From Chiloscyllium plagiosum (taxonomy: Eukaryota): a stretch of DNA of 64,000 bases. Below the pieces are notes generated by a model. It was not told where the DNA came from. It made no database searches and saw only the letters and a program-made list of their open reading frames with translations. Positions 1 through 54,525 of this stretch are shown here, one piece after another. The stretch lies in the NCBI RefSeq assembly GCF_004010195.1, contig NC_057718.1:79427721-79491720 (forward strand), written 5' to 3'. The translations under genes were made by a program, and so were the position numbers. Each line of letters starts with the position of its first letter. Position 1 is the first letter of the stretch.

Positions 1-475
1 CACCTCCGCTCCCTCACCACCAGACGCCTGGAGGAAGAACGCCTCATCTTCCGCCTCGGAACACTTCAACCCCAGGGCATCAATGTGGACTTCAACAGTT
101 TCCTCATTTCCCCTTCCCCCACCTCACCCTAGTTCTAAACTTCCAGCTCAGCACTGTCCCCATGACTTGAATGGACTTGTCCGACCTGCCAATCTCCTTT
201 ACCCCCTACTCCACCCTCTCCTCCCTGACCTACCTATCACCTTCATCCCCTCCCCCACTCACCCATTGTACTCTATGCTACTTTCTCCCCACCCCTACCC
301 TCCTCTAGCTTATCTCTCCATGCTCCAGGCTCACTGCCTTTATTCCTGATGAAGGGCTTTTGCCCGAAATGTCGATTTCGAAGCTCCTTGGATGCTGCCT
401 GAACTGCTGTGCTCTTCCAGCACCACTAATCCAGAATCTGGTTTCCAGCATCTGCAGTCATTGTTTTTACCTCAT
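1..475 (+). mobile_element. Penelope-like element 3' end (GIY-YIG endonuclease C-terminus plus pLTR), truncated by window edge
   Basis: Translates RRLEEERLIFRLGTLQPQGINVDF; followed by pyrimidine-rich UTR, a hammerhead core and the ...ccagcatctgcagtc terminus shared with other copies in the window. Confidence 0.85.
342..378 (+). ncRNA. Minimal type I hammerhead ribozyme motif in Penelope pLTR
   Basis: CTGATGA(346-352)-A-GGGC-TTTT-GCCC-GAAA-TGTC; catalytic boxes and stem II intact, ACGT palindrome mutated to ATGT. Confidence 0.75.
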
Positions 476-2449
476 GCAAAACCTTACATACTCAGGGCAA
501 CCAAAAGTATTTTACAAGCAACATAAACAATGAATTACTGATAATCACTTCTTTTATTAAACACAGCAAGGTCCCAAAAAGAGCAAATCACAGAATGACC
601 TGATAATCAGTTTCCTGTGGTTAGCATGAGAGAGGAAAGTGCAACAAAATTGAGTCAGTAAAAGGATACATTGGAGACGCCAGAGAAGAAACAAGTAGAT
701 TTAAAAAATTGCAACTTTTTTGTGTCTACTCTTGCTAATCTTTTATCATGGCACCTCATGTTTTTTGGCTTGAAAATGCTTCTCTGAGGGAGGACATTTG
801 AGCTTTTGATTGCAGCCTGACTGTGTTTACTTTATGGGAGTGCCTTTAACTGCACTTTTAAAGCATTAAAAGCAATTTAGGTTTGTCTTCTGCTATATGT
901 GGCTATTGGTCACAATGGAGAGTGCGGACTGACTGTAGGTAGCTACAGTTGAGTTGCTGTCTGGCTCTTGATCATTCCTGTTTTGACACCTATTAAATTG
1001 CAGATTGTTACAGGAAGTGATATATGAATGCACTGCTTATCATTTGCTTTTGCTGTTGCTGAAGTTTGTTACAAATAATTCTGTATTTTCAAGTTCACCA
1101 ATTGTCTGTCCTAGGTTTCAATGTATCTTATTTCTTTCCCTTTTTGAACTGAAGCGTAATTTCAGTGTGATAACTCCTATTCACTACTGATTAAAAAATC
1201 CTTATACTTTGCCTAACTCTCCAACAGTTACTTACATGAAGGTTACAAAAGTCATTCAAAAAACTTAAAATATCACTGGACAAAACAAGAATATCATTGC
1301 AAGTGAAGAGTTTTTAAAAAAATACCAAAGTGTCATAAACTAAGAGGTAAAGGCTGTAACTTTTTAAAAATGTCTACTAATGGCTTTCATACAACTACAT
1401 GTAGGTATTATGCAAGTGACTCATTTGTTATATCTTTCTTTCTCTAACCTCCCTAAAGCATGATTGCGATTAGCATCTGGCAGTTTTCGGAAATTAGCTC
1501 AGTAGTCATAAAGATGAGTCACTACAAGTCTAAATGTAATTTTGTTATGTCAATTTATGGACTGAAAAGGAACTCAATAATAATAACTTTGTGGGCAGAG
1601 GCCTGTTTGCCTGTTGAACTAGTCAGTGTTTATCTACAGATACACACTAAGCCTATGTCAAAATTGAAATGAAGTTTCTGAGCTCAGCCTGCAACTGGAC
1701 ATTTAAATTTGTTTGTCTTAGTTTTTCTGCTTTACCTAAACCACCTTAGAAAATGTAGGTAATACATTTAATATATTGTGGAATTATGAGGAGCAAATGT
1801 GCTCCCCCTGGTGATAGCTATCATTAACCATTCAGCCAAATCTTAAACAGCTTTTGGCCTTGATGCTGGGTGAAATTAGTATGGCCTCAATAGGCGAGCT
1901 CATTGGTGTTCTGCTTGGTGTCACTGTCTGATTTGTACAAAAGGACAGATAGCATGACTGAGGGCTGTTTACCATTTGCTTGGTGTTGGCTTTGTCATCA
2001 AATATTCTTTATGCCTGAATGTCAATTTTGTTGAGTTTTTCTGGAAGGTTTTTGTTTGCCACGAGGTCTTGCAAGATTTCTTGCTGTAATTGCCAGACTC
2101 ATTTCATTATCTACTTACCCCACCTCTGTCATCCAATCCAGCCCAATCTTACACTTGCTGTCCCCAAAGGAACTCATTGGATATCCATCAAAGAACTGCC
2201 ACCCCTGATGCCCACACCATCTTTTGGATGGCCACTACATACCTAGATAAGCATTGGCAGTTCAGCAATGCCCCTCACCAGCAACATAATGGGTTAGCAG
2301 CCTCACAGCGGATAGTTGGCATGGCTGATACTCTGTCAAAGGTACAACCCCATTTTCTCACCCCAGTCTCTGTTTAACCATCAGGTTACATAGTTTGCCT
2401 CTCCTAAACACCCTTTATAGGTCATTGTGACCATTCATTTACTTTACAA

Positions 2450-2680
2450 TCCATGTTGATCTGCTGGAATTGGGTGCCAGTCAGGTTCATTCTGTAGCGA
2501 CTGCTGCAGCTGAGTAGTGTCAATACACAAGAAGAGCTCTGACCTTCTCAGCACCCTCATCTTCCTCATTGGAAGATGGCTCCCATTTCCACAGTTCCTC
2601 AGCATCTCGAGCCGAACACAGCACACCAGGATGATGCAGCACACTGTCTAGGCTATAATTGAGTTCTATAGAGTCCATCG
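2450..2680 (-). pseudogene. PIF/Harbinger transposase C-terminal relic
   Basis: Frameshifted LNYSLDS/CCIILVCCV resembles the Harbinger LQYSPxRVxxIxxxCCxLHN motif and is followed by an acidic tail (SSNEEDEGAE). Confidence 0.5.
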
Positions 2681-2863
2681 TAATACATACATGACAGATG
2701 ATAAAGCGATCGTCTCTGCCTTGTGCAACATCATTGCAAGTTTCACAAATTGTGTGTCACTTTTAGTCAGCATTCCCTCTTTGTAAGTCATTGCAGCTAA
2801 CCTCTCTATCATTAAGATGTCAATGTTTAATTTGCAGACACCAAAGTTATGGAGTTAAAAGGC

Positions 2864-5800
2864 TTTTTTTATTGAAAAAGATTTTTTGATTATTTACAAA
2901 ATTATAAAATTATAACAAAATTAGTATAACCATCTTACAGTATAGCAACAATAACAATAAGCTATTACTCTACTTTACAAAACAAATAAAAAAAAACAAA
3001 AAAAACTACTCATACTACAATTCAATAAATAAACAAAATAAGTTAATTATTTTAGGATGAATTAAATTAAATTATACCACTCAGTGCAACTCCACCAAAG
3101 TTCCCCATCATCAGGAGTATTAGGCATCAGTTGGCATACCTGTATTTATTCAGGATTCTTCTTCTCGGGGTCCCCAGCCCGCCAGACCCAGTCTTCATGG
3201 CTAATACAAAGGCCCTAATCAATATGGCCGACAAGTCTGCATCTATATAGTTCAAAAAGGGCCACCACGTCTTATGAAAAAGTTCAGTTTTCTAGTATAC
3301 CATACTTGTAAGGAGGTCTAAGGGGACATGTTCCATAACTAACCTGCGTCATTCCACTAGACCTGGGGGATTTTCCAAGATCCAGCTCATCAGAGTGTTC
3401 TTCCTTGCACAATATGTAAGGATATTAAACAGTTTGTTTCCATGCTCATCTAAAGATGGCAGATTCAGCAGGCCCAAGAGGAGGGATACCGGATCTACCT
3501 TGATTTCGGTTCCCAAGATCCCCTCCAAAACATTTGCTGTAGCGCCCCAATACCTGCGAAGCTTGTGGCATGACCACAAGCAATGGGTGAGAGTACCAAT
3601 GTCTATTTTGCATTTGGGGCACATTGGGGGCATTCATTTTTTAAATTTCGCAAGCCGCTTTGAGGACAAATAGACCCTGTGGAGAATCTTCAGTTGCAGA
3701 GCCTACATTCTATTACAGGTCAAACTTTTCTCACATTCTCCCAAATGTCCTCCCATACCTCTGACAAGATCTCCACTCCCAATTCTTGAGTACAGATCCC
3801 ACAGAGCCGTCCAACATCCTTCAAGACACCCCCCTCCCAGTAAATGGTAGAGGGTGCTAATCAAGAATATACTTGTAGACCAAAGTACTCTCCTTTCCAC
3901 ATCAGACTTACAGTAATTAACCAATAGTGTAGTCTTTTTCTGTATAAAGTCCCTAATCTGAAAATAATGACAGAGGTCCCTATTGGACAATTCATCTTTA
4001 TGGCTCAGCTGATCGAAAGACATCATGACCTCCCCCTCAAATAAGTCTCACAAACAGGAGACTCCTCCAGACTCCCATAAACTAAAACCAGAATCCATCG
4101 ATTCTAACCGAAATCCTGGCATTCCTACAATGGGAGTAAGAAGGGAAGTTTTATATAAATTACCTTTGCTTTGTCACATCATTCTCCACGCTTTAACCGT
4201 GTTAATGTCAATCAGGTTTCTACAATGCTCCATGATCTTGTCCTCATCTTGTCCATAAACAGTAAATTAATAAGGGCTTATTTACCTGGGAGGCCTCAAC
4301 GTCCAACCATATTGACCACTGATCCTGACAAGCCCAATTAATCATTCACGTATGATAATAGGGAACTTACTTGATATCTCTTGAAATCTGGGAAGCGTTC
4401 CATCTCCNNNNNNNNNNNNNNNNNNNNNNNNNNNNNNNNNNNNNNNNNNNNNNNNNNGCCACCACCTTCCCCCACCCCCTCACTCCATCCACTGTGGAAG
4501 CTGCAGTTTAGCAAGCTTAATAAGAGGTCACCTGTGGCACCAGATGAAAGAACCAAGTCAACTGTTAAGTCTCCACAACCCTTGCCTAGGTAACATCAGA
4601 GGGAGCATTCGCATGGGATACAATAAACGAGGAAGAACATTCATTTTAACCAGAGCTATTCTACCCAACCAAGATATCGGTAGAACCTCCCAACACTGAA
4701 GGTTCTGTCTTATCTTCTCAAGCAAATGCACAAAATTAGCTTTATATTGATCAAAGGCAGGAGTAATAAAAATACCTAAATATAGAAAACCTCCCTGTGA
4801 CCACCTGAAAGGCAAACGGATTCCACCTTTAAGGTTCAGTACTCCCTCAAGACCCCCACTGGCATGGCTTCTGATTTTGTACTTTGAGAAAGAGACAAAT
4901 AAATTAATATTTCGTATTAAACGGGGCATAGATATTGTCAGGTTAGATAGAAAAAGAAGAACATCATCTGCGTAAAGGGTGATTTTATGCCCCTCATCCC
5001 CCGATTCCACCTCCGGGACAACTCTATTGGGGTCCCTCTAGATAGCCTCCACCAACTGCTCAATCACTAATGTGAACAGCAACGGTGAAAGGGGGCACCC
5101 TTGTCGGCTGCCTCTACCAATGCTAAAATTGTCAGACCTTATGTTATTAGTAAGGACCGTTTCCATAGGATCACTATATAACACTGCCACCCATCTGGTA
5201 AAGACCCTCCCCCAAGACCAAACTGTTCCAGGACATTAAAAAAGTACAGCCATTCCACCTACTTTCTCCGCATCCAGGGAGCCCACCAAGCCCGGAATCG
5301 ATCTCGGTTGGCACAGCTGGACCATGTTCAGCATTCTACTAATGTTGTTAAAGGATCCACGACCCCCAATAAAACCTGTCTGGTCCTCCTTTATGATAGA
5401 GGGCAATACCATCTCCAATCTCAGAGCTTGCGTTTTGGACAGAATATTAAAATCCACATTTAGCAGCATGATGGGCCTGTAAGAAGCACAGCCCTCTGAG
5501 GTTTTCCCTCTCTTGATAATAAGGGAGATTTTAGCTTCTCTCAGAGAGAACGGGAGGCAGTCCTGACTGTATGAATAACTATACATGTCCAATATTGGCC
5601 CGGCCAATATATTTATAAACTCCTTATAAAGCTCACTCGGAAATCCATCTGGGCCGGGTGCTTTACTATTCTGGAGCTGCCTTGCCATCTCCTGTATCTC
5701 TTGGATTGTCAGAGGGGCGTTCGACAGGGACGCCTGCTCCGAAGTTACACCTGGAAGGTCCAGGTTCTTAAAAAAGGAGTCCATCTTCACCCTGTCCTCA

Positions 5801-8714
5801 CAGACCTCTCATCGATACAACTCAGCATAAAATTTCCTAAACGCCGCCTTAATCTTTTTGAATCACAAGTGAGATTCATACCCTCTCTAATGGATGTGAT
5901 AGATTGGGTGGCACACTCTTCTTCCTGGCCAGGCATCTACCCAGCTTATCACCGTACTCGAAAAGCCTTTGGTTTTGTGAAGGAAATTTCTCTCTTTGTT
6001 GTCTGGGTGAGCGTGGAGTTCAGAGCAGCCCGGTGAGCTGTACTCTGCTGTAGCTTGCAAAGTATGCTGTCTCGGCTGCAGGCATACACCTCTGCTCTCC
6101 CCTCTGCCGCTTCCAGGTCGCTGAGTAAGAAATAATTATACCTCTTGCATAGGTCTTGGCAGTCTCCCAGAGCATCAATGAGTTACTGGCCGTACGCGAA
6201 TTAATCCCCCAGAAAATTTTTAACTCCCATGAAAAGTACTCAATAAACTTGCTGTTCTTCAGGCAAAGAGGATCCATGCACCAATGCCACAAGCCTGTCC
6301 CAATACCTCTGCCCTTAACCTCCAAATAACTGCCGCATGGTCAGAAATGGCTGTGTTCTCAATTCTATAGGACAGTACTGAATCCAAAAAGGCCAGTGGA
6401 TTAAAAACATATCAATCCTTGCGTGGCACTTGTGTGGGTTAGGGAAAAAGGTGAAGTCCGTACCCTCAGGGTGAAGGCATCTCCACACATCCACCAGCCC
6501 CAACTCCCCACACAAGTCCACCAGTTGTTTGAATTGCGGAGATGTGCCTGGGAGACCCCTGGGTATCCTGTCCACCTTGAGGTCCACAAGACGATTGAAG
6601 TCTCCCCTATAATTGTGTGGTGCATTCCAAGGGCCATCAACCTGGAAAGTGCATCCATTAAAAACTTAAGGGGTTGTGCTGGGAGGCAATAAACATTCAA
6701 AATCCCTTATTCCTCCCCATGTATTAGAGCTTCGGTTTAATAGCTGAAATGGGAGATTCTTCTGAATTAGTATAGTTATTCCCCTGCTTTTAGAATTAAA
6801 AGGCGAGAAGCACACCCGGCCGAACCCTCCCTTTTGTGACTTTAAATGCTCCTTAACGTCTTGATCTGTTTCTTGCAACAGAGCGACATCAATCTTCTCT
6901 TTTCTAAGATTTGAAAGTATTTTCTTTCTCTTAATCAGTGGGTGACTCCCCTTAATATTCCAGGTACACCATTTAAACGAGCAACTAGCCATAGCCACCT
7001 GAAACAGCCCCACGCACCCCGAGAGGAAGAACCCTACTCATGACATGACAAGTGTAAACAATAAAAGATTCATAAAATCTAGAAAATACAATGACAAAAA
7101 CTACCAAAGCAGAACTTCTAAAAACTACTCTGACAGTAAACCAATACAAAAAAACAGATAATAGGAGACTTTCCCCCTTGCCCACAGGGGGCAGTCACAC
7201 AATCCACGAATACCTCCATGGCTCTTTCTAGCTGAAGCCATGCCCCAAATCCAGGCAAAACAAAAGTAAAGAATACATGTATCTTATAAACAAGGAAATT
7301 AAAGGTGGGCATTGAACCCATCCCATCCATATATCGACCCCAGTTATTACTGACTTAAAAAAAGCCTCACCCCAAACCAAAGAAAAAGGAATAAGGTAAT
7401 AATAAAAAATGGAAGGGAAAAAAGAAAAAAAACCCATTTATTAAAGCAGCAAAACCAGGTAAACAAAGTAAACAACAGAGAAAACAAAGGAAACACTGTT
7501 GTCCATATTATTGAATCAGCCAGTCTATTTTAAAGTCTCCAGGTAGTCCTTTGCCTATTGTGATGAGTCAAAAATATGCACGGACATTCCATGGCTGAAA
7601 CACAACACTATTGGGTATCTGAGTTGAAAAATGTGGTGCTGGAAAAACACAGCAGGCTAAGCAGCATCCGAGGAGCAGGAGAATTGACATCCTCGGATGC
7701 TGCCTGGCCTGCTGTGTTTTTCCAGCACCACATTTTTCAACTCTGGTCTCCAGCATCTGCAGTCCTCACTTTCTCCCATTATTGGATACCTTAGAGAGTA
7801 CTGAATATTCAAGTCTCTCAGCCTTTTCTTTACTTCAAAGGTCTTCCTCTTGTGGATCACACCCTCAGAAAAGTCCTGAAAGAACATAATTTTCGATCCC
7901 TTGCAGATCAGGGCTTGTGATTCCTTCCCTATTGTTCTGGAAGCTTCCAATACCATTTGCTTGTCTCTGTAATACTGAAATCCAACTAGAACCGGGTGGG
8001 GGCGCTGGTCCGATCTGGGCCTGCGCAACGCGACCCGGTGAGCCTGCTCAATTCGCACCCGGCCCACCTCTGCTTCCAGTCCCAAGAACTGCCGAAGACA
8101 TTGCTCAAAGAAGGTGACTGGTTGATCCCCTTCCTCTCATTCCAGCCGCCCAATAACACAGATATTTTTCCTCTGACCTTGATTTTTGAGATCGTTGACC
8201 TGTTGTACTAAGGCCTGCACCTATTTTTCCAGGGCTTAGATCTGACCCACCGAGGATTCTCCGATGCCACGGTCCACTGCTCGACCTCCTCCATGAGCTG
8301 CCCGAGATGCTGGATCACCTGCTCATGCTTTTACAGCACAGTCGAGATCAGTTCCAGCCTAGTCTGGGTCTCCTCCATCACTGATTCGATCTTCTCTTGG
8401 AGTTTAACAAACTCCGAAACCAGGCTCTGCTGTGCAGGTAAGTTCAAAGGAGCTTCAGCAGAGGTCAGCACTGCAGCCGTGGGCGTATCCGTTATTGCAG
8501 GAGGATGCCCTGCTTGTTGCAATCCACGCTGCTCCTTTCCTTTGGTCATCTTCCCTGATTGCTAAAAATAATGTACAAAGATTCAGGGGACTTAAAACTG
8601 CCAATTTTTACAAAAATGGCTAGTAAAGGGAGGGTAAAAACACCACTTTGCCTGGGTTGTGGTGCAGAGCTCAGCAAGGCAGACCCATCAGAACGCCACC
8701 ATCTTGAATCCCCC
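2864..8714 (-). mobile_element. Full-length decayed L1-clade LINE
   Basis: 5' end GGGGGATTCAAGATGG (typical L1 start). ORF1 from 8549 with DLKNQGQRKNICVIG, IEQAHR and FFQDFS motifs. T-rich inter-ORF. ORF2 from about 6993 with endonuclease (WNIKG, LLQET), RT (KAPGPDG, YRPI, SLDAEK, YADD) and C-terminal CxxC..HxxxxC (CPKC..THCLWSC). AATAAA plus poly(A) at about 2864-2874. Multiple frameshifts and stops; N-gap at 4408-4457. Confidence 0.95.
7621..7776. mobile_element. Short palindromic Penelope pLTR-derived insertion inside L1 ORF1
   Basis: Inverted repeat (gagttgaaaaatgtggtgctggaaaaacacagc...gctgtgtttttccagcaccacatttttcaactc) flanked by cactattgggtatct (7606-7620) and cattattggatacct (7777-7791). 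Confidence 0.85.
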
Positions 8715-10255: not shown

Positions 10256-10309
10256 GAGTTGAATTACCTAGTCCTGCTTTTAGTTCTTATGGTCATATGA
10301 GTTATAACC

Positions 10310-11045
10310 TTGCAAAATTTGCTTTATTCTGGAAAGGTCCCTGTGGATTGGAAAATCACAAATGTATTGCTAATATTCAACAAGGAGGAAGATAGAAAAT
10401 AGGAAATGATAGGCCCGTTAACCTAACCTCTGTCATAAGGTACATGCTAGAATCCATTATTAAGGCAGTAAAAGCAGGACATTCAGATAATTGTACTACA
10501 ATTACACAGAGCTGAAAATGCGTTGCTGGAAAAGCGCAGCAGGTCAGGCAGCATCCAAGGAACAGGAGGATCGCTGGAGATCAGAGCTGAAAATATGTTG
10601 CTGGAAAAGCGCAGCAGGTCAGGCAGCATCCAAGGAACAGGAGAATCGCTGGAGATCAGAGCTGAAAATGTGTTGCTGGAAAAGCGCAGCAGGTCAGGCA
10701 GCACTGGAGATCAGAGCTGAAAATATGTTGCTGGAAAAGCGCAGTAGCTGGAGATCAGAGCTGATTCTCCTGTTCCTTGGATGCTGCCTGACCTGATTTG
10801 CTTTTCCAGCAACACATTTTCAGCTCTGATCTCCAGTATCTGCAGTCCTCACTTTCTCCTCCTACAATTACACAGAGTCAACATGGTTTTGTGAAATGAA
10901 AATTTATGTTTGACTAATTTATTTAAATTCTTTGAGGAAGTAACACGCAAGATTGATAAAGGGGAACTTGTAGATATGTCTTAGCATTTGTAGAAGGCAT
11001 TTGATTAAGGTGGTACACAACATAAGAGCTCATGTGATAATATGT
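10310..11045 (+). mobile_element. Old CR1 RT fragment, interrupted by a Penelope-derived insertion
   Basis: Degenerate DW..N..GNDRPVNLTS and QHGFVK..CLTNL..FFEEV..AFD motifs on either side of 10509-10861. Confidence 0.7.
10509..10861. mobile_element. Penelope pLTR-derived insertion with head-to-tail tandem copies plus one inverted copy
   Basis: Four units starting agagctgaaaat.tgttgctggaaaagcgcag (the last two truncated), followed by the reverse-complement unit. TSD ctacaattacacagag at 10496-10511 and 10862-10877. Confidence 0.88.
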
Positions 11046-11057
11046 TAGTGTGGTATC

Positions 11058-11965: not shown

Positions 11966-11999
11966 TAGGTATCTGGAAATAAGCCTCTTTCCTCATATA

Positions 12000-12137
12000 G
12001 GAGAAAGTGAGGACTGCAGATGCTGGAGATCAGAGCTAGAATTCCTGAAGAAAGGCTTATGCCCGAAACGTCGATTCTCCTTCTCCTTTGATGCTGTCTG
12101 ACCTGCTGCGCTTTTCCAGCAATACATTTTTAAGCTC
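12000..12137. mobile_element. Short Penelope pLTR-derived insertion carrying a hammerhead
   Basis: Inverted terminal piece plus forward pLTR piece. TSD ctctttcctcatata (11985-11999) / ctcttttctcatata (12135-12149). Confidence 0.85.
12039..12077 (+). ncRNA. Minimal type I hammerhead ribozyme motif
   Basis: GAATTC-CTGAAGA-A-AGGC-TTAT-GCCC-GAAA-CGTC-GATTC. Stem I gaat(t)c/gattc, palindromic ACGT in place of stem III, GUC cleavage triplet. Confidence 0.8.
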
Positions 12138-12949
12138 TTTTCTCATATACTCAAATTATACTTCTCCCCTTAGTGATGGTGGCCTTTTACTGTTTTCATT
12201 ATTTTTAAAAAACTGCTTGTTTACCCCATTACTAGCTGTAAAACGCTTTTTCTGAGACCAACAGCATTTTGATGGTTTCTCTAGAGGATGTATTTTTCAA
12301 AGATGTTTCCCCTCACAGCGGCTGTTCAGTTCTATTTTAACTCTTCTTGCTACTGGCTGATCTTAAAGCTAATCATTTTCTGAAATAAGTTTCTTTTATT
12401 GAAATTTTATCTTTTTCAGACAACCTCAAGTTTGTTTCTTGGTCTCTCATGCTGCTATGATTTTCTGGGCAGTGAATTCCACCACTACCCCCATCATTTA
12501 TCATGTGGTTTGATGCCACAGCATTTTATGCTCTTTAGACTGGTTGAGGAAAAGGTAACACTAAGGACTATAGTCAGGCTTAAACTTCAAAGTAACACTA
12601 TTTATGATACATACTAAATGCTGTGATGCATCTAACCATAAATACACCAGCCTCAGCTTACAATTACATTGGGTAATGATTAATTTATCTTTGTGCATTC
12701 ACGTCCATGTGTTATGTCTTCCAGGAGGTTTCGCTGTAGTGTACCTTCCAAAGTGTTCCTTCTAGCCTCTTCTAACTCCCCCACATTGTGGTATTTAAGA
12801 ACATATGTCATAATCATGATATAATCGTAAGGTTGCTCCAGGGTCCTGAAGCCTTTAAACAATAAGAACCAAAGTTTCACTTCAGGCTTCATTACAGTTA
12901 TATACAAATGTCTGCATAGCAATGTTATTGAAGATTGTACATTCAACTC

Positions 12950-14065
12950 TATCATTTCAGCTTAAAGCTGATTGCTGGATGAGGATTTGTGCTCACAAGG
13001 ACTGAGTAACAATCCCATTCTAGTTGTTATCAAAGTAACAGCTGCCCTTAGTTTTTATGTTAAAGACAAAAAAACCTGCAAATGCTGGATTCCAAGGTAG
13101 ACAAGCAGGAGGCTGGAAGAACAGAGCAAGCCAGACAGCTTCAGGAGGTGGAAGGGTTACATCTGAAATGTTGACTTCTCCTGATGCTGTCTAGCTTGCT
13201 GTGTTCTTCCAGCCTCCTGCTTGTCTACCTTAGCTTTTATGTTAGCAGCTCATTTTCAGGGAGCAAGTGGGGACTTCTGTGACATCTCCCCACTAATATG
13301 TGGATCTGGGATGTTAATGATGACAATTACACCTGAACCGTCTTTTCGTTATCTTCAATCTTCATGAAGGGAGTCAAACAGCTAGGGTATTAGGATTTTC
13401 CACTATTGCGGACTTGTCTTAGGTGCAGGATGCTAATGGTTACACCAATCTTGCTTTGAGATTGCCCATCACCAACTTTGTGAACATGAAAGGATCCCAC
13501 TTCATTAATGTTCAACTAATTTGTTGATTACATTTTGGATGTCTGCACCAGATATCCTGGGAACTAGCACGACTCCAGTCTGCACTGGAGCACTCATAGG
13601 TGCTTGCCTCTTTTGTAATTCCTTTCCCCATACAGGCATGGCTTCTGGGAGACAAGAGGTCCCTTCTCCAAACCTGACTTATTGTGCTGCAAGAAATCCA
13701 CAGACCAGTGCTGTATATAGGTATATCATTTATCACACTTCTAGCAGAGCTATAATGGAACAGACCAGAAGCCTCCTAAACATAAGGTTTCAATGCTTGG
13801 ATCACTCTGGTGAGTCTTTACAGTATAGCCCAGACAGGTTGTCCCACAAAGTTGTGGTAAGCTGTGACCTTCACAACTTGAGCCAACAAAGTTGCAGAAG
13901 ATATGCTAGATGAAATGAGAGAATGTCAGCAATTCTCTGAGGATGAAGATGAGGCTGAGGATCAAGAGATTGACCAGGAGAACATTCCTTGGGAGGAGGC
14001 CAGATCAATTTTTCTGAGAGCTTCAGAGGCCAGAGACAAGCTCATAACCACTGCTTTCAGGGTGA
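12950..14065 (+). pseudogene. PIF/Harbinger DDE transposase (HARBI1-like) decayed copy
   Basis: Successive motifs KVTAALSFY, FVNMKGSHFINVQLIC, RYPG..HDS, WLLGDK, RAIMEQTRSLLNIRFQCLDHSGESLQYSPDR..CDLHNL and acidic tail. Frameshifts and stops. Confidence 0.9.
13063..13231. mobile_element. Palindromic Penelope pLTR-derived insertion inside the Harbinger transposase
   Basis: aaggtagacaagcaggaggctggaagaac... / ...gttcttccagcctcctgcttgtctacctt. TSD cttagtttttatgtta (13047-13062) / cttagcttttatgtta (13229-13244). Confidence 0.85.
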
Positions 14066-42185: not shown

Positions 42186-42262
42186 GGTAACTACAAAGAC
42201 ATGAGAGAGGAGCTGGCCAGAGTTGATTAGAAGGGAACCGAAAGAACTATGGATACTGTAAA

Positions 42263-42365
42263 TCAGAAACAAAAACAGAAGTTGTGGGAAAAACTCAGCA
42301 GGTCTGGCAGCATCTGTGAAGAGAAATCAGAGTTAATGTTTTTGGTCCAGTGACCCTTCCTCAAC
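42263..42365 (-). mobile_element. Old Penelope pLTR fragment with degenerate hammerhead (similar copy at about 52545-52650, +)
   Basis: Minus strand reads tgaggaagggtcactggaccaaaaacattaac...cagatgctgccagacctgctgag. Confidence 0.65.
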
Positions 42366-45300
42366 TCATTGGAAGGGAAACAGACCAGGGAAGACAGCAG
42401 AGCAGCAATGGCAGGAGCTTCTGGGTGTAATTCAGGAAGCACAGCAGACATTCATCCCAAGGAAGAAGAAAGAAGAAGATGATGCAACCGTGGCTGACAA
42501 GGATCATGTAATACAGTGTTAGTCTCCTTACCTCTGACCCAGGAGGCACAAGTTCAAGTCCACCCTGCAATAGAGGTGCATCGTAACATCTCTGAACAAG
42601 TTGATTAAAAATACTTCCAAATGCAAACAAAAAAAAATGCAGTGGTGAAAATTAGTGGGAAGCCAGAGAATTTGAAAACCTTTAAAAACAAGCAGAGGAT
42701 AACTAAATAAAACAATAAGAGGGAAAAAAGATGAAATATGAGGTAAGCTAGCTAGTAATATGGAAGAAAATTGCAAGAGTTTTATTTAGATATCTAAAAG
42801 GTAAGAGAGAGGAAAGAGTGGACATTGGACAATAGACACATGAGGTTGGAGGAACTGAATAGCTACTTTGCATCAGTCTTCCACGTGGAAGACACCAATA
42901 GCATATCAGAACTTCAAGAGAGTCAGAGGACATCGGTGAGTGTAGTGGTCATTATTAAGGAGAAGGTGTTGGGGAAGCTGAAAGGTCTGAAGGTGGATAA
43001 ATAACCTGGACCAGATGGAATACAACTCAGAGTTCTGAAGGAGATAGCTGAGGAGATTGTGGAGGTATTCGAGATGATCTTTCAGGAATCACTGTTGTCA
43101 GGGAGGATCCTGAAAAATGGTTATTGTAATTCCCTTGTTTAAGAAGGGAGAGAAGACAGAAGTCAGAAAATTATAGACCAGTTAGCCTGACCTTTGGTTA
43201 TTGGTAAGATTTTCGAGTCGATTATTAAAGATGAGGTTACAGAGTCCTTGAAAGTACACAGTAAAATCGGGCTGAGTCAGTCTAGCTTTGTCAAGGGGAG
43301 ATCATGCCTGAGACATCTGTTTGAATTCTATGAGGAGGCAATAAGCAAGTAGACAAAGGAGAGCCAGTGAATGTGATCTATTTGGATTTCCAGAAGGCCT
43401 TTGACAAAGTGACACACAGGCGGCTGCTAAATAAGATAGGAGTCCACAGTTGTTGGGCGAAAGGTATTAGCACTGATAAAAAGATTGGGTGCATAAGAAG
43501 GATAAATGGGTCTTTTTCAGGATGGCAGCTGGTGACTAGTGGAGTTCTGCAAGGGTCCATGTGGCACCACAACATTCATGATATACATTAACAATCTCAA
43601 CGAAGGACCTGAGGGCTTTGTCGCTAGGTTTGCAGATGCCACAAAGGCAGATGGAGGGACAGGTAATGTTGAGGAGGTGCAGAGGCCGCAAAAGGAGCAA
43701 GGAGAGTGGTCAGAATTGGCAGATGGAATATAATGTGGGAAAGTGTGACACCATGCACTTTGGCAGGAAGAATAGAGGCATAGATTATTTTTTAAATGGA
43801 GAAAGGCTTTGAAAATCTGAAAGGGACTTAGGAATCATATTTCAGGATTTTTTTAAGATTAACATGCAGGTTTAGTTGGTAGTCAGGAATTACAACATTC
43901 CAATTACAACATTGGAATTCATTTTGAGAGACGAGAAAAAAAGAGCAAAGATATACTGGTGAGGTTGTATAAGGCTTAGGTTTGACTGAATTTGGAATAT
44001 TGAGAGTAGTTTTGGGGCCTGTATCCAATGAAGAATGTGCTGGCCTTGCAGGGGAACCAGAGGAAATTCACAAGAATGATCCCGGGAATGAAGGGTTTGT
44101 CATAGAGGAGCAGTTGAGGTCTCTAGATCTGTACTCAGTGGGGTTTTAAAGGATTGGGGGTGGGAGGGTGGGGTCTAACTGAAGCTTATGAGTACTAAAA
44201 GGCCTGGATAGTGTGCACATGGAGAAAATGTTTCCACTGAGGAGAGAAACTAAGTTCAAGGAGACAGCGTCAGTGAAGGGACGACCCTTTATAACTAAGA
44301 CGAGGAGGAATTTCTTAGTCAGAGTGTAGTGAATCTCTGGAACTCATTGCTGCAGAAGGTTGTCGAGGCCAAGGTGTCTTTAAGACAGATACATAGATTA
44401 GTTCGTGATCAAGGGTTACAGAGAGAAATTAGGAGAATGGGGTAAAGAAACATATCAGCTGTGATCAAATGGTGGAGCAGTTTTAATGGGCTGAATGGCC
44501 TAATTCTCCTTTATCTTATGTTTATACGGATAGGGAGGAGAGTGAGGGGATTAAAATCAGATGTGAAAGTCAGGTCTCCATTCTCACACGGAGCGCCATT
44601 TGCTTTGGAGGTACAGTGTATTTTTGCTCCAGAGCAGATATTTGATACAGGCAATTAAGGGCCTAATTACAATGTCAAAGACTTGCTCCAGCGTCATCAT
44701 CTGAGTGCACAGACTGTTTAGACTGAAGACTGGTGAAAGCTCGCTCGTCCTGAGCCTGCCAGTAAAACTTAACAGCAGGCAAATTCCAGGTCTGCAGATA
44801 CCTGAAGCCAACTCCAGTTCGTTGGTTATTTATAGAAGATGAGTGCAACTCGTAGTCTTGCAAGAATAGCTTGAGTCTAGGCTTGCCTCTCTCCCACAGC
44901 TGATATACTTGGCTGCCGGGCAGTATCTGTTAAACAGATTACCTTCTGCATCAGCTCATCCACACCACACTCCCAGATTAAAAGTTGGAGTAGTTTGTTC
45001 CTGATGTCTAAAGAATGATTGGTTATAAATTGGACCAATTTGGAAGTCAGATACATACAGATATCGTCCTTCCTTGCAAATAGGGGACACACTATCCTTA
45101 CAGGCACATTATGTTACTTCCAGCCAATTATTCCCATCCTGGAATTTGTTCAAATTATTCAAGATGCTTTTCTTTTGAATACTTAAAACTCTGGTTGCTT
45201 CAACTTTCTATTCCTTTGCAGTACAATTCCCCCAAGTCATTTTGACCCCTTTTATTTCTGTATAGATGTAACTTATTGGGAACTTAGCAACTGGAGTAGG

Positions 45301-45664: not shown

Positions 45665-47330
45665 AGAGTCATAGTCATAGAGTCATAGAGATGTACAGCA
45701 TGTGAACAGACCCTTTGGTCCAACTTTTTTATGCCAACCAGATATCCCAACCTAATCTAGTCCCACCTGCCAGCACCTGGCCCATATCCCTCCAAACGCT
45801 TCCTACTCATATACCCATCCAGATGCCTTTTAAATGTTGCAGTTGTACCAGCCTCCACCACTTCCTCTTCAGCTCATTCCATACACGTTCCACCCTCTGT
45901 GTGAAAAAATTGTCCCGTAGGCCTTTTTTATAACTTTCCCCTCTCACCCTAAATCTATGCCCTCTAGTTCTGGAACCCCGTCCACCCCCAACCACCCCAT
46001 CCTTGTAAATCTTTTCTGAACCCTTTCAAGTTTCACAACATCTTTCCGATAGGAAGGAGACCAGAATTGCAGGCAATATTCCAACAGTGGCCTAACCAAT
46101 GTCTTGTACAGCCGCAACATGACCTCCCAACTCCTGTACTCAATACTCTGTCCAATAAAAGAAAGCATACCAAACACCACCTTCACTATCCTACCTACCT
46201 GTGACTCCACTTTCAAGGATCTACGAACCTGCACTTCAAGGTCTCCTTGTTCAGCAACACTCCCCAGGACCTTACCGTTAAGTGTATAAGTCCTGCTAAG
46301 ATTTGCTTTCCCAAAATGTAGCACCTTGCATTTATCTGAATTAAACTCCATCTGCCACTTCTTAGCCCATTGGCCCATCTGGTCAACATCCTGTTGTAAT
46401 CTGAGGTAACCTTCTTTGCTGTCCAATACACCTCCAATTTTGATGTCATCTACAAACTTACTAACTATATCTCTTATGTTCGCGTCCAAATCATTTATGT
46501 AAATGACAAAAAGTAGAGGATCCAGCACCAATCCTTGTGGCAGTCCACTGGTCACAGGCTTCCAGTCTGAAAAACAACCCTCCACCACCACCCTCTGTCT
46601 TCTACCTTTTGAGCCAGTTCTGTATCCAAATGGCTCGTTCTCCCGTATTCCGTGAGATATAACCTTGCTAACCAGTCTCCCATGGGGAATCTTGTTGAAT
46701 GCCTTACTGAAGTCCATATAGATCATATCTACTGCTCTGCCCTCATCAATCCTCTTTGTTACTTCTTCAAAAAACTCAATCCAGTTTGTGAGACATGGTT
46801 TCCTACACACAAAGCCATATTCACTATCCGTAATCAATCTTTGCCTTTCCAAATACATGTACATCCTGTCCCTCAGGATTCCCTCCAACAACTTGCCCAC
46901 CACCGACGTCAGGCTCACTGGTCTATAGTTCCCTGGCTTGTCCATACCATCCTTCTTAAAGAGTGGCATCATGTTAGCCAACCTCCAGTCTTCTGGCACC
47001 TCACCTGTGACTATGCATGATACCAATATCTCAGCAAGGGGCCCAGCAATCACTTTCCTAGCTTCCCACAGAGTTCTAGGGTACACCTGATCAGGTCCTG
47101 TGGATTTATCCACTTTTATGCATTTCAAGATGTCCAACAATTCCTGCTCTGTAATATGGACATTTTTCAAACTATCACCATCTATTTCCCTACACTCTAT
47201 ATCTTCCATGTCCTTTTCCAGAGTAAACATTGATGCAAAATACTCGTTTAGTATCTCCCTCATCTCCTGCGATTCCACATAAAGGCTGCCTTGCTGATCT
47301 TTGAGGGGCTCTATTCTTTCACTAGTTTAC
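45665..47330 (-). mobile_element. 5'-truncated CR1 with open RT domain
   Basis: 444-aa ORF 45944-47278 (GNYRPVSLTS, DFSKAF, FVDDIK) and (agtcatag)n tail. Confidence 0.95.
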
Positions 47331-48442: not shown

Positions 48443-49430
48443 CATGGTGGCTCAGTGGTTAGCACTGCTGCATCACAGCGCCAGGGAGCTAGGTTTGATT
48501 CTACCCACAGGTGAATATGTAGAGTTTGCACATTCTCTCTGTGTCTGCATGGGTTTCTTCCCACAGTCCAAAAATGTGCAGGTTGGATGTATTGGCTATG
48601 CTAAATTGCACATAATGTCCAGGGATGTGCAGGCTTGGTGGATTGGCCGTGGGAAATGCAGAGTCGAAAAGTGTGGCTCTGAAAAGTACACTAGGTCAGG
48701 CATCATACAAGCAGCAGGAGAGTCGACATTTTGGGCACAGATAGGTGAGAAGAAAGATGGACAGGTGGACAATTCAAGAGAGTGGTATCGAGTTGGAGGG
48801 TTGGATCAGGGATGAGGTTGGGGGAGCGGAGAGTAGGAAACTAGTGAAGTTGATGTTGATGCCGTGTGGTTGAAGGGTCTTAAGGCGTAAGATGAGGTGT
48901 TCTTTCTCCAGTCATTGGGTGGCTTGGATTTGGCAGTTGAGGAGGTCCAAGATTTGTATGTCCTTGGTGGAGTGGGAGGGCGAGTTGAAATGGTGGGCCA
49001 CAAGGTAGTGGGTTCGTTTAGTGTGTGTGTCCTTGGATTGTTCCCTGAAGCATTATGTGACTTGGCGTCATGTCACCCCAACGTAGAGGAGACAACATCA
49101 AGAGCAGTGGACACATGAGGTGAGTGGATGTGCAGGAAAATTTCTGTCAGATGTGAAAAGATCCTTTGGGCCCTTGGACGGAGTTGCGGGGGGAGGTATG
49201 GGCACAGGTTTTACACTTTTTGCGGCGGCAAGAGAAGGTACCGGGTGTGGAAGGTGATTGGTGAGAGTTGTGGACCTAATGAGGGAGTCACTGAGGGAAT
49301 GGTCTTTGGAAATGCAGGGTTACAAGGATTGGGTAGAGAAACAGGTCTGGGTGGGATGATCTTCAGTGGATTGATATGGACTCGATGGACTGAATGGCCT
49401 GCTTCCACATTGTAGAGATTGTATGATTCT
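48443..49430 (+). mobile_element. HE1-like SINE split by a Penelope insertion
   Basis: Head at 48443-48661, tail at 49308-49430. Confidence 0.82.
48662..49307 (-). mobile_element. Penelope-like element fragment (GIY-YIG region plus pLTR)
   Basis: Degenerate C..C.LLYVG and LEKEHLILRLKTLQPHGINI motifs. TSD ggaaatgcag at 48652-48661 and 49308-49317. Confidence 0.85.
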
Positions 49431-49974
49431 ATTAACCTATTTTCCAGCACACAGTTCATTGCCTCGTATGCCTTGCCTTTGCAAGTATACACCTAAATAT
49501 GAGGAGATGATGAACCTAATGGTATTATGACTGGATTGTTAATCCAGAGAACCAGGAAATGTTGGGGACTTGAGTTTGAATCCCTCCACAGCAGATGCTG
49601 GAATTTGAATTTAATTTAAAAAATCTGGAATTAAGAGTCTCATGACACCATGAATCCATTGTACATTGTCGAAAAACCTAACTGGTTCACTAATGTCCTT
49701 TTGGGAAGGAAACTGCCATTCTTATTTGGTCGGTCTACATACGATTCCAGACTTGCTAAAATTTGGTGAACTCTTGATTGCCTTTTGGACAATTAGGGAT
49801 GGGCAATAAATGCTGGCCTAGCCAGTGATGCCCTCATTTTGTGAATGAATTAAACAAACCTTAGTAAACTCAATGAACAAAATGACCTACTTCTGCTCTT
49901 ACATCTTATGGTCTTATGGTGAAACACCAAATATGAGAAGCCAATGAAGCTTCTATGATGGAACAGTTCTTACA

Positions 49975-52370
49975 TCACAGAGATATATAGCACAGAAACA
50001 GACACTTTTAGTCCAACTCATCCATGTTGACCAAATATCCTAAATAAATCTAATTCGATTTGTCAGTACTTGGCCCATATCCCTATTAACCCTTCTTATT
50101 CATATACCCATCCAGATGCCTTTTAAATGTTGTAATTGTACCAGCCTCCACCAGTTCCCCTGGCAGGTCATTCCATTCACGCACCAACTTCAGCGTGAAA
50201 AAGTTGCCCCTGAGGTCCCTTTTCTATCTTTCTCGTCTACTTTAAATCGATGCCCTTTAGTTTGGGACTCACCCATCCTGGGAAAAAGACTTTGTCTATT
50301 TACCCTATCCATGCCCCTCACAATTTTATAAACGTCTATAAGGTCATACCTCAGCCTCTAATGCTCCAGAGAAAACAGCCTCAGTCAATTTAGGTTTTCC
50401 CTATAGCTCAAATCCTCCAACCTGGCAACATCCTTGTAAATCTTTTCCGAACCTTTCCAAGTTTCACAACATCATGTCTATAGCAGGGAGACCAGAATTG
50501 AATTCAGTATTCCAAAAGTGACCTCACCAATGAACTGTACAGCCTCAACATGACCTCCCAACTCTGATACTCAATGCACAGACCAATAAAGACAAGCATT
50601 CCTAACACCTTCTTCACTATCCTATCTATCTGTGACTCTACTTTCAAAGAATTATGAACCTGCACTCCAAGATCTCTTTGTTCAGCAATACTTCCCAGGA
50701 CCTTACCATCAAGTGCTCTGATTTGCCTTTCCAAAATGCAGTGCTTCGCATTTATCTAAATGAAACTCCATCTGCCACTCCTCAGCCCATTGGCCCATCT
50801 GATCAAGATCCTGTTGTACTCTGAGGTAATCTTCTTCGCTGTCCACTACATCTCCAATTTTGTTGTCATCTGAAAACTTACTAACCATATCTTCTATGTT
50901 CATATCCATTCATATACATGACAAAAAGCAGTGGACCCAGCATTGTTCTTGTGGCACACCACTGGCCAAAGGCCTCCAGTCTGAAAATGCAAACCCTCTA
51001 CCATCACCCTCTGTCTTCTACCTTTGGGCTAGTTCTGTATCCAAATAGCTAGTGTCCCTCTATTCCGTGTGATCTAACCTTGTTAACCAGTCTACCATGA
51101 GAAACTTTGTTGAATGCCTTACTGAAGTCCATATAGATCATGTCCACTGCTCTGCCCCATCAATCCTCTTTGTTACTTCTTCAAAAAAACTCAATCAAAT
51201 TAGTGAGACACAATTCTCCATGCACAAAGCTAGGTTGAATATTCCTAATCAGTCCTTTCCTATCCAAACACATGTAAATCCTCGCCCTCAGGATCCCTCC
51301 AACAAATTGCCTACCACAGGTATCAGGCTTACCTGTCTGTAGTTCCCTGGCCGAGTTAGTTCCTAACCACCTTCCTTAAATAATGGTACCACGTTAGCCA
51401 ACCTTCAGTCTTCCAGCACCTTACCTTTGGCTATCGATGATACAGACATGTCAGCAAGGGGCCCAGCAATCACTTCTCTAGCTTCCCACAGAGTTCTAGG
51501 GGACACCTGATCAGGTCCCGGGGATTTATTTAAACAATAAAATCTTTATGCATTTTAAGACATCCAGCACCTCCTCCTCTGCAATATGGACATTTTTCAA
51601 GATCTCGCTATTTATTTCCCCACATTCTATATTTTCCATGTCCTTCTCCACAGTAAACATTGATATATAACACTCGTTTAGTATCTCCCCATCTTTTGCA
51701 GTTCCACACATAGGCAGTCTTACTGATCATTAAGGAGCCCTATTCTCTCCCTAGTTATCTTTTTGTCCTTAGTGTATTTGTAGAATCCCTTATAAATTTC
51801 TCAATTTCATGCTGACTATTTGGGGTGGGTGGGGGGGGGGGGGAGGGGGGTGTGGGGAGGGTGGGGTGTTGAAGAGATGGGGGTCTATAGTACAGTCCTA
51901 ATAAGGTGATTATCCCTTTCTTGTTTCCCAGTTCCACCCAAATAACTTCCCTGGACGTAATCCCGAGAATATCCTCCCTAAATACAGCCATAATGTTATC
52001 CTGATCAAAAACACCGTTCCCCTCTTCTCTTGCCTCCCTTTCTATTCTTCCCGCAGCATCTATATCCTGGAAAATTGAGCTGCCAGTCCTGTCCATCCCT
52101 GAGCTACATTTCTGTAATTGCTATGATATCTAGTCCCATGTCCCCAACTATGCCCTGAGTTCATCTGCCTTACCTGTTAGGTCTCCTGCATTGAAATAAA
52201 TGTAGTTTAATTTATCAGTCCTACCTTGTTCTCTGCTTTGTTCTTGCCTGTTCTATTTGATTTACTCCTTTTCCCAGCTGTATCAGTCTCAGACTAATCT
52301 CTATCCTCACTGTCTCCTTGGGCCGCACCTCCTCCCTTTCTAGTTTAAATCTTGCTGAGCAACTCTAGCT
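49975..52370 (-). mobile_element. CR1 LINE, ORF2 with internal deletions
   Basis: Endonuclease (IWVELGNKKG..GLYYRPP) and RT (FSDDNK, WQMEF) fragments with CR1 3' UTR. Confidence 0.9.
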
Positions 52371-53155
52371 CTTGAGGGAATTTCAAGGCTAGATCATTAA
52401 TTGTGAAGAATTGGAATTCTTCGTGGCTTTTTAATGAGATTTGATGATCTTGCATGTCACTAATGCGTGGGGGAGATTGCTGAGAAATCCTTGTGATCTA
52501 TCTTAATTGGATTGGCTATTTAATGTAGTATATTATGAAGGTCACTGTTCTTCAAACTAAAGAGGATCACTAGTCCCGAAACATTAACTTTGTTTTCTCC
52601 CCACCGATGCTGCAAAGTTTCTCCAGCAATTTCTGTTTTTGTTTTAGTTTTCCTGCATTCACAGTTCGTTTGTTTGTTTTTTCCAATTGGTATGTTGTGT
52701 TGCCAACTTGAAATGCCATGTGTTAGCATGAATAACGCATGGGGAGTGTGCAGGAGTATTTAAAGGGCATGAGGAATGAGTGCTGGAGGGCTGTACTTTG
52801 TTTTACTCTTTTCTTTGAAGTCTTCAAAGAATCATGAAGGCCAGCATTTTACCCACTTTTCCAGCCACCAGCCTGTGAACTCTTCATGAGTTTGTCCATC
52901 ACTCCTCTCATTTTCACCTGCACATCCCCATCTTCCCAACCCCTCAGAACAAACATCTAAACCTCTAGGGCATTTTTTTCCCCAGTTTGGGTTTGCAGGA
53001 AAAGAAATCATCCTAATTCTAATGCCTGACACAGGAGTGAAAATTTAGAACCACTTGTGCTGATAATACCCAACAAGTAAAGCATCAACAAAATTGGAAA
53101 GGAAATTCAATAACTTTCAAATTAAAGCAAAGCAAATGTAACTTCAATATACATT

Positions 53156-53413
53156 GTTAAAAATCACACAACACAAGATTATAGTCCAACAAGTTTAATT
53201 GGAAGCACTAGCTTTCAGAGCGTCGCTCCTTCATCAGGTGGTTGTGGAGAACACAATTGTAAGACACAGATTTTATAGCAAAAGTTTACAGTGTGATGTA
53301 AGTGAAATTATACATTGAAAAATACCTTGATTGTTTGTTGAGTCTCTCAACTGTTAGAATGACCATGATAGTTTCACTATCATGATAGTTCAACACCGGC
53401 ATCTCCAAATCAT
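53156..53413 (-). mobile_element. Penelope-like terminal fragment, same family as 14980-15070
   Basis: aaaatcacacaacac.ag.ttatagtccaac...ggaagcactagctttc shared with the 14980-15070 copy. Confidence 0.75.
53206..53240 (-). ncRNA. Minimal type I hammerhead ribozyme motif, apparently intact
   Basis: Minus strand CAC-CTGATGA-A-GGAGC-GAC-GCTCT-GAAA-GCTA-GTG. All catalytic nucleotides present, 5-bp stem II with one G-U pair. Confidence 0.82.
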
Positions 53414-53734
53414 GACTGGATGTGCTATACATTCCAAAATAAAACTAAACACTAATTGACAAATTGAATTTTCCAATGTGGGAACAAAAACAATTCTCAA
53501 CCTTTGAAGAGAATACTGATGCACTTTTGTTTTCGAAGCAAGATTTAGCTATTATGTAATATGATAATATTGGTGTCATTCATTTTTATTTCCTGGAGAG
53601 AGGCCATTAAAAGTACAACTTTAATTCCTGTCTAGAACCATTTACAGATTATATGATGATTCCATTGACAACACAGAATTTCTGAAGGAGCAAAATGGAA
53701 TAAGAACTCAGTCTAAAAGAAATTAGATAGGAAT

Positions 53735-54525
53735 AGATAGCCCGAGCCAGCAATAACGTGAGCAGGCAGCCTAGGGTGGGCGGCTGGTAAGTGGGAGCAG
53801 GCAGCCTAGGACAGCAACAGGAGCAGGAATAGGCTGCAAGGCGAGGAGAGCAGGCAGCCTAGGGCAGGAACAGGAGCAGGAACAGGCTGCAAAGCAAGAA
53901 GAGCAGGCAGGCCGGGGCAGGAACAGGCTACAAGACAGGGAGAACAGGTAGGCCGAGGCAGGAACAGGCTACAAGGCAGGAAGAGCAGGCAGGCCAGGGC
54001 AGGAACAGGCTGCAAAATGGGCAGAGCAGGCAGTCTGGGGCAGAAACAGGCTCCAAGACAGGGAAAGCAGGCTGGCCGGGAAGGTGGCAGAGACGAGGTT
54101 GAGCCTGCAGTGGGAGACGTTGAATTCTTGTTAGGAGTACGAGTATAGCATGGTTAGGTGCTTGTGGACAGTGGTGTTGAACTGTTAACTGTTTCTTTTA
54201 TTTTCCACTTTTTAATAAGAAGGACTGTAATGTATAACTTTGTTTTCCTTGTTTTTATGCTTTGTACCTAAGATTCTGTGCCTTTGTACCTAAGATGGAG
54301 CCGTAAGTGGTGACTTGTAAACTTTTCACCCTCTTTCCTGATGAAGGGCTTTTGCCTGAAACGTTGATTTTCCTGCTCCTTGGATGCTGCTTGACCTGCT
54401 GTGCTTTTCCAGCACCACTCTAATCTTGACTCGAATCTCCAGCATCTGCAGAACCCACTTCTGCCAAACCTTTCACTGTATTCAGGCAAGTACATATGAC
54501 AATCAACCGAATTTAATTCAACTCA
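53735..54525 (+). repeat. GC-rich about 40-bp minisatellite (gagcaggcagcc.agggcaggaacaggct.caag) at 53760-54080 within a probable non-autonomous retroposon
   Basis: About eight degenerate units, followed by a T-rich segment ending gtacatatgacaat...(ttcaa)-like tail; a similar tail occurs inverted at about 57530-57570. Confidence 0.6.
54330..54465 (+). mobile_element. Short Penelope pLTR-only insertion with hammerhead core (54338-54370)
   Basis: CTGATGA-A-GGGC-TTTT-GCCT-GAAA-CGTT. TSD aaacttttcac (54319-54329) / aaacctttcac (54466-54476). Confidence 0.85.

Follow-up and report, generated by a model that had tools for sequence, protein, structure and literature searches.

What is a recurring hammerhead ribozyme core doing in a 64,000-nucleotide (nt) stretch of the genome of the shark Chiloscyllium plagiosum (contig NC_057718.1, positions 79,427,721 to 79,491,720; hereafter the window, by which we mean the whole stretch)? 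An earlier note, drawn from the letters alone, had assigned about ten such cores to at least three families of Penelope-like elements (PLEs). Our analysis leads, with high confidence, to the conclusion that the motifs are dead, mostly 5'-truncated insertions of several endonuclease-bearing, probably Neptune-type, PLE families with a minimal type I hammerhead in the pseudo-long terminal repeat (pLTR), and that they are now inert relics. Their identification as minimal type I hammerheads of PLEs is borne out by linkage to a GIY-YIG endonuclease, by target duplications and inverted ends, by covariation between families and by agreement with the published consensus, with the proviso that family B has no open reading frame (ORF) linking it to a PLE.

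Copies were located by a regular-expression scan and a register-anchored table, and further remnants by profile searches with slices of the window. At each of the ten positions named in the earlier note the sequence is as described or survives as a remnant. Both catalytic boxes (CUGANGA and GAAA) are kept in six of the 13 tabulated copies, which belong to family A (346+, 12045+ and 54338+), family B (14991+ and 53237-) and family C (15367-). In the family D copy at 15990+ G12 has become A, and the first box is lost or damaged at 24672+, 42360- and 52556+. Remnants beyond that first list lie at 7690-, 13152+ (family E) and 48737-, together with a core-less insertion at 10496-10877. The core-bearing and degenerate copies are as follows (bp, base pairs).

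346-373, plus strand: minimal hammerhead of family A, palindrome decayed to ATGT, predicted cut after 373.
11985-12149, plus strand: short family A copy with inverted 3' end, 15-bp target duplication, core at 12045-12072 and A.C at 10.1-11.1.
14981-15070, plus strand: family B copy, core at 14991-15019 with AGCT, a CUA triplet, one G.G in stem II and a 3-bp stem I.
15276-15811, minus strand: family C copy with broken GIY-YIG C-terminus (15811-15598), pLTR, core (15367-15337) and tail.
15985-16036, plus strand: family D remnant with a stem I of 5-6 bp, G12 replaced by A and stem II disrupted.
24661-24762, plus strand: family A copy starting inside stem II, no first box, perfect 11-bp target duplication.
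42245-42366, minus strand: degenerate family D copy, from alignment and the register-anchored table.
52552-52659, plus strand: degenerate family D copy, from the same two sources.
53158-53299, minus strand: family B copy, core at 53237-53209 with AGCT palindrome and G.U at 10.1-11.1.
54319-54476, plus strand: short family A copy, 11-bp target duplication (one mismatch), core at 54338-54365.

Helix III is absent from these motifs, and a palindromic 15.1-16.1 segment precedes the NUH triplet, in keeping with the published consensus CUGANGAH G...C GAAAN-palindrome-NUH (PMC4209133). An extra base, A, follows position 9 in all seven copies that retain the first box, and in these the 10.1-11.1 pair is G-C in four, G.U in two and A.C in one. 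Helix I comprises two pairs in families A and C, three in B and five to six in D, with pair swaps between families, and the family C core has a 5-bp stem II. The palindrome is intact in four of the six full cores, so the claim that it recurs throughout stands for 12045 and 54338 (ACGT) and for 14991 and 53237 (AGCT) but fails for 346 (ATGT) and 15367 (ATCT). Of the stem I pairings that had been proposed, cac/gtg and cagtt/aactg are as stated, whereas gaatc/gattc for family A gives only two contiguous pairs, followed by a U.U mismatch, in the three copies that retain the first box. Nor is stem II (GGAGC/GCTCT) fully paired at 53237, where G10.1-C11.1 has become G.U; 14991 has G-C there. All six full cores bear damage: the palindrome is lost at 346 and 15367, the 10.1-11.1 pair is A.C at 12045 and G.U at 53237 and 54338 (the last also with a GUU triplet), and stem II contains a G.G at 14991.

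The carrier of the motif is visible at the left edge of the window, and an old copy repeats part of the arrangement.

1-129, plus strand: C-terminal end of a family A PLE GIY-YIG endonuclease ORF, from translation, running off the window edge.
130-345, plus strand: pLTR, pyrimidine-rich 3' non-coding sequence between the ORF stop and the hammerhead, with multi-copy depth.
374-472, plus strand: 3' tail with a GATGCTG/CAGCATC hairpin, from alignment and folding.
48658-49370, minus strand: old family A-like copy, broken ORF end at 49370-48783, first box deleted, remnant from 48737.

Codons 1-40 of the window match the zebra-shark protein P0001 (70% identity over 40 amino acids (aa); tblastn E 6e-10), which supports a shark origin. 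P0001 contains a reverse transcriptase (RT) motif, a cysteine linker and a GIY-YIG domain, and reads about 100 residues beyond the endonuclease into LMKGLRPKR, comparable with LMKGFCPKR in the 12045/346 frame; this read-through suggests the same element layout in another shark. Its relatives number 597 among 7,999 candidates scored, with RVT_1, GIY-YIG and related domains in the 120 listed. When these 120 PLE-type proteins were used in tblastn, three PLE-type places were found, 1-203+, 15811-15598- (E 2e-9) and 49376-48783- (40% identity over 200 aa, E 1e-29), and each is followed immediately, in the same orientation, by a motif or remnant (346+, 15367- and 48737-). The five other matches come from a single protein, P0111, and are located in remnants of long interspersed elements (LINEs). 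The closest relatives have RT followed by a C-terminal GIY-YIG domain in one ORF; the window itself holds broken ORF ends only. A C-X4-C-XX-C linker precedes the endonuclease in P0002 and P0004 (we disregarded a regular-expression count of 117/120, which also picks up a cysteine motif within the endonuclease). Neptune and Nematis elements are reported to have a CX2-5CXXC linker between RT and endonuclease (Craig et al., PMC8557442), and a preprint found only Neptune and Poseidon in vertebrates (bioRxiv 10.64898/2026.07.22.740005). Given this linker and the two clades found in vertebrates, families A and C are likely to belong to the Neptune clade. The tail start GATGCTG is common to families A, C, D and E in alignment. 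Families C (minus strand) and D (plus strand) lie back to back at 15276-16036, with their 5' ends adjoining at about 15790-15810 and no similarity upstream. Separately, three public ray protein models (P0005, P0053 and P0126) bear host-gene names but have PLE or LINE content, and are probably annotation chimeras. Also, a pyrimidine tract at 315-331 (plus strand), ending CAG|G 16 nt 5' of the family A core, has the look of a splice acceptor; helix I marks the end of an intron in Drosophila Penelope (Cervera and de la Pena 2014, PMC4209133).

Might the motifs be no more than chance matches in repeat-rich DNA? We compared the window with 300 dinucleotide shuffles in 2-kb blocks, using a descriptor that was written from the finding and so was not blind. 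The two boxes alone are within chance (nine observed against a shuffle mean of 5.7, with at least nine in 40 of the 300 shuffles), which is what such an explanation would predict. Adding a stem II of at least four pairs, however, leaves four observed against a mean of 0.25, and adding the NUH triplet as well leaves four against 0.04, neither count being reached in any of the 300 shuffles; with the palindrome included two are observed, and there are none in all 300 shuffles. The position of the motif is moreover fixed within homologous elements. Chance is refuted by the shuffle test together with the register-anchored pair table, and we give it practically no credence. Chance does account for 295 loci with the motif pattern in metagenome, viral and prokaryote collections, none of which matches the window elements (blastn) or P0001 (tblastn).

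Base pairs were counted in register by script over the seven copies with a first box; two MAFFT alignments, which misplace family B by one column, were not used for the counts, and the rows for 42360, 52556 and 13160 were left out as out of register. Pairs 1 and 2 of stem I are Watson-Crick in 14 of 14 cells, pair 1 being C-G in A and B and U-A in C and D, and pair 2 U-A, A-U or C-G. Of the 28 cells for stem II pairs 1-4, 23 are paired, and double changes (G-C/A-U and C-G/G-C/U-A swaps) separate the families. Family A has ACGT as its palindrome and family B AGCT. The covariation of both stems and the palindrome between families is real, though drawn from four lineages. The variation had been described as structure-preserving, and between families it is; within families it is mostly damage, most simply CpG transitions eroding the motif. 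Three CpGs surround GAAA in family A, and transitions at sites of this kind would account for ATGT at 346, GUU at 54338, the G.U pairs at 24672, 53237 and 54338, and ACAT in family D. Genome contigs of two sequencing runs, X1 and X11 (two species), aligned to 640 nt at 80% likeness, have C as the majority base at position 370 (about 72% of summed depth for X1 and 70% for X11), and the family A majority is ACGT. Among the 40 best-supported variable places of 1-640 (with 193 more behind them) none falls in 343-369 and many lie on both sides, which gives only a hint that the core is conserved relative to its flanks.

The insertions themselves carry the marks of PLE integration, and three more of them are as follows.

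7606-7788, no strand assigned: fold-back pair of family A tails, degenerate 12-bp target duplication, no core.
10496-10877, no strand assigned: complex family A insertion, perfect 16-bp target duplication, no core.
13046-13244, no strand assigned: family E fold-back insertion, 17-bp target duplication, remnant at 13152-13172.

Target duplications of 16, 15, 17, 11 and 11 bp flank five short copies, and inverted arms are present in four insertions (7606-7788, 10496-10877, 11985-12149 and 13046-13244). The inverted arm of 7606-7788 extends barely into the palindrome, and the forward arm of 13046-13244 begins within the first box. For 14991, 15990, 42360, 52556 and 53237 there are weak candidate duplications only, which we do not claim. 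The combination of 5' truncation, an adjacent inverted copy and a target duplication is a described PLE insertion pattern (Craig et al., PMC8557442).

The earlier expectation of a very large number of such motifs in a shark genome is upheld by the contigs. On the 640 nt 73,382 contigs from X1 and 78,557 from X11 were aligned, and summed depth over the motif runs to millions against about 5-70 on the unique flank; this depth is not itself a copy number, and the safe reading is that family A has tens of thousands of copies or more. Depth drops to single-copy level past about 484. A contig of organism B covers the flank at 472-637 but has 396 unlike letters ahead of it, which suggests that the 346 insertion is absent there (an empty site).

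Where do the copies begin? Among the loose ends listed (1,333 further ones lie behind these), the strongest heterogeneous 5' end is at 342, 3-4 nt before C3, supported by 714 contigs of X1, 684 of X11 and 188 reads of the RNA run X21 (agreement 0.32-0.52). Among the joints listed, the best-supported strand switch is 342/383 (13 and 11 contigs). Copies 12045 and 54338 likewise have 5' ends 4-8 nt ahead of C3, 54319-54476 beginning 8 nt 5' of it. With the main 5' boundary only a few nucleotides ahead of the core, the motif is complete in most short copies, which stem from RNA that was uncut at the predicted site. The same boundary could be taken to mean that the short copies form a separate non-autonomous family, like a short interspersed element (SINE) or a retrozyme, whose RNA starts just 5' of the hammerhead and which borrows the PLE protein; end 342, joint 342/383 and the starts of 12045 and 54338 would all fit, and such units are treated as non-autonomous PLE derivatives in a preprint (bioRxiv 10.64898/2026.07.22.740005). 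In sequence, however, the short copies equal the ends of ORF-linked copies, the 342 boundary reflects partly subfamilies with another upstream pLTR and partly truncated copies such as 12045 and 54338, and none of 23 tandem repeats recorded in the window consists of core-bearing units. We therefore regard a separate family as unlikely, though worth keeping in mind, and read the short copies as truncated PLE insertions.

One insertion may nonetheless bear a trace of cleavage. That at 10496-10877 consists of five inverted segments and one forward segment; four of the inverted ones restart at one tail position, none of the six passes 5' of the predicted cut site, and two inverted segments and the forward one end at that site, with a junction ambiguity of 1 and 2 bases. 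The segments differ at 3-5 of 66 positions and may go back to a single template, a later duplication or fold-back copying, so that they amount effectively to one event, noticed post hoc. Two of the 12 joints listed for X11 restart at most one base from the cut site. The window copy differs from its family at 379-383, which clips alignments and makes a cut-site class poorly visible in the contigs. Against such a class, the remaining family A copies of the window have start points elsewhere, at about -36, -32, -21 and -4 or far upstream. That 10496-10877 is a record of cleavage in vivo, in which RT re-primed repeatedly at one tail site on RNA ending at the cut and which would stand for a cleaved-template class, is a tentative and rather doubtful proposal. 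If it were true genome-wide, with a class starting at the cut site beside one starting before the core, the role of PLE hammerheads in vivo would become testable by counting.

The preferred account of dead PLE insertions can be put as a sequence of steps. In an active tandem element, two cores would pair through the 4-base palindrome (ACGU or AGCU) and so build the missing helix III, as published work leads one to expect; the paired cores would cut after GUC, CUA or GUU, slowly and probably aided by the protein of the element. That protein would nick DNA and reverse-transcribe from within the tail, usually copying the final 100-150 nt, and such short, tail-primed copying would scatter solo motifs. 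Selection on master elements could then produce the covariation between families, while inserted copies would decay, chiefly at CpGs in and around GAAA. In the window no tandem pair is present, the nearest full cores of the same family and strand being 11.7 kb apart, and dimer cleavage is therefore unlikely there.

Several observations weigh against this account. A search of Rfam (E at most 10) gave no hammerhead among its 11 matches, as would be expected for hammerheads without helix III. None of the 120 PLE-type proteins matches an ORF of family B in the window, and the tail of this family differs from the GATGCTG tail; we infer a PLE origin from its likeness to a painted-turtle motif in the supplement of PMC4209133, with which it shares the GC palindrome and the following CCAAAUAAA. 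Families D and E are tied to PLEs through the common tail only, and the covariation is based on just four families and seven copies. No full active dimer emerged when monomers and homodimers were folded by minimum energy, stem I of family A has only two contiguous pairs, and insertion of an Anolis PLE in vitro did not need the hammerhead (PMC11167929).

The last points invite the proposal that the motif is vestigial, kept for folding, protein binding or as a reverse-transcription stop, with no cleavage in these families. The 2-bp stem I of families A and C and the accumulation of copy ends upstream of the core rather than at the cut would agree with this, as would the reported inactivity in vitro of eight of nine Xenopus dimers (bioRxiv 10.64898/2026.07.22.740005) and the reported lack of RNA-seq ends at the Anolis site (PMC11167929). 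Yet the catalytic boxes, NUH triplet and palindrome are all maintained across unrelated families, published members have a 2-bp helix I (PMC4209133) and the Anolis motif cleaves when protein is present (PMC11167929). A loss of cleavage throughout these families thus seems improbable to us, and a motif that served the active elements and is inert in the inserted copies is preferred.

Could the copies have acquired a function in the host? The window sits inside the very large parkin gene, one coding exon of which we found.

21114-21028, minus strand: parkin (PRKN) coding exon, 87 nt with AG/GT ends, from similarity to parkin proteins.

The exon, located by a crude splice-site scan, matches solved parkin structures (E 4e-5) and is identical to Chiloscyllium punctatum parkin at 28 of 29 residues. 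It was not recovered by Pfam, although the frames searched (n=278: 277 of 385 stop-to-stop frames of at least 55 aa, plus 1-129, those omitted being mostly LINE and SINE repeats) included its frame. With five parkin proteins as queries no second parkin exon was found in the window. The motif copies had been placed in one intron; the exon splits them over two.

With parkin on the minus strand, some copies might be functional ribozymes that cut or tune its pre-mRNA. Sense to the gene, among the 12 motif-bearing copies, are only 15367, 42360, 48737 and 53237, besides the palindrome stub at 7690, and full cores are sense in two cases only, 15367 and 53237; it also speaks for such a role that family A reads in X21 occur in both orientations. 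No X21 read falls on the unique flank, and run X22 gave no alignments, so these runs carry no evidence on expression. The two sense cores, however, come from different families and lie in different introns, the palindrome of 15367 is broken and 53237 has G.U at 10.1-11.1. Eight of the 12 copies are antisense (two-sided binomial p about 0.39), with no strand bias either way, as are the nearest same-family cores mentioned above, and the 346 site appears empty in organism B. No pile-up of RNA 5' or 3' ends was found in 2,131 reads of X21, a weak test in an unsuited single-cell poly(A) library of which 2% was read. Cleavage of parkin pre-mRNA by the window copies is most likely not taking place, and we consider a regulatory role of this kind highly improbable; inert insertions remain the better description.

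The surrounding DNA is rich in other repeats. A degraded LINE of L1/Tx1 type (about 3300-8500, minus strand, with endonuclease and RT matches) contains the PLE fold-back 7606-7788, and the PLE copies 10496 and 24661 are apparently inserted into CR1-like LINE fragments. Such fragments are many (24752-26479, 39722-40345, 45673-47326, 49966-51547 and 62614-63564), and that at 45947-47326 (minus strand) retains a 460-aa RT frame (E 4e-26). At 27381-29352 (plus strand) broken pol- and env-like frames resemble an endogenous retrovirus, with Pfam matches to RNase H and integrase zinc-binding domains. A weak DDE_Tnp_4 match at 13509-13910 (plus strand; E 0.0015, below cut-off) is probably the remnant of a Harbinger-like transposon. 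A dispersed SINE-like family (repeat families D13 and D14), presumably akin to the shark SINE HE1, occurs at 34919, 48443, 54717 and 62128, with an inverted pair at 61915-62297. A GC-rich 41/53-bp minisatellite (53795-54080) lies immediately 5' of the 54338 copy.

What the window adds is a view of how PLE hammerhead copies decay after insertion. PLE hammerheads have low activity in vitro, and in the one reconstituted system the motif is dispensable for insertion; if the boundaries of the copies record the biology, the very high copy number would give statistics on cleavage in vivo, by showing if the first base of inserted cDNAs falls on the cut site or ahead of the core. Our literature searches, which did not cover subscription papers, Repbase or Dfam, gave no paper specifically on hammerheads of shark PLEs, and a search of supplement file 2 of PMC4209133 by shark and ray terms gave no chondrichthyan entries (file 1 not searched). 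Hammerhead-bearing tandem PLE derivatives are reported in the one chondrichthyan genome sampled in the preprint of Li, Clavereau and Pollet (bioRxiv 10.64898/2026.07.22.740005). The non-LTR (long terminal repeat) retrozymes of that preprint share with the window type I hammerheads derived from PLE pLTRs, but are defined by tandem units each with a hammerhead; the window has no such tandem, its sole tandem of family A sequence (a 75-nt unit, 10507-10703) being core-less.

Comparison with Poseidon PAc of Anolis carolinensis (Frangieh et al. 2024, PMC11167929) yields a similar mixture. In both, the hammerhead lies near the pLTR end. Cleavage of PAc needs the protein and is dispensable for insertion. 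Its reverse transcription begins at internal sites, within the tail that they define, and these starts and the extension of both DNA strands fit the fold-back and re-primed insertions of the window. PAc belongs to a different clade, whereas families A and C have a Neptune/Nematis-type cysteine linker, and its ORF starts inside the hammerhead, whereas an ATG in the first box of the window copies reaches a stop within about 20 codons.

The closest likeness is with the minimal hammerheads of metazoan PLEs (PMC4209133), which are reported to dimerise through the palindrome, forming helix III, and to cleave slowly. Shared features are the type I form without helix III, a palindromic 15.2-16.2 segment, a short helix I, the extra base before G10.1-C11.1, many families per genome and mostly solo copies of truncated elements, with some pairs on opposite strands. 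The density here, six full cores in 64 kb, extrapolates from this one window far above the approximately 4,000 motifs of coelacanth and 9,000 of Xenopus given in that paper. The kind of motif was described in 2014, and the window adds a shark example to it.

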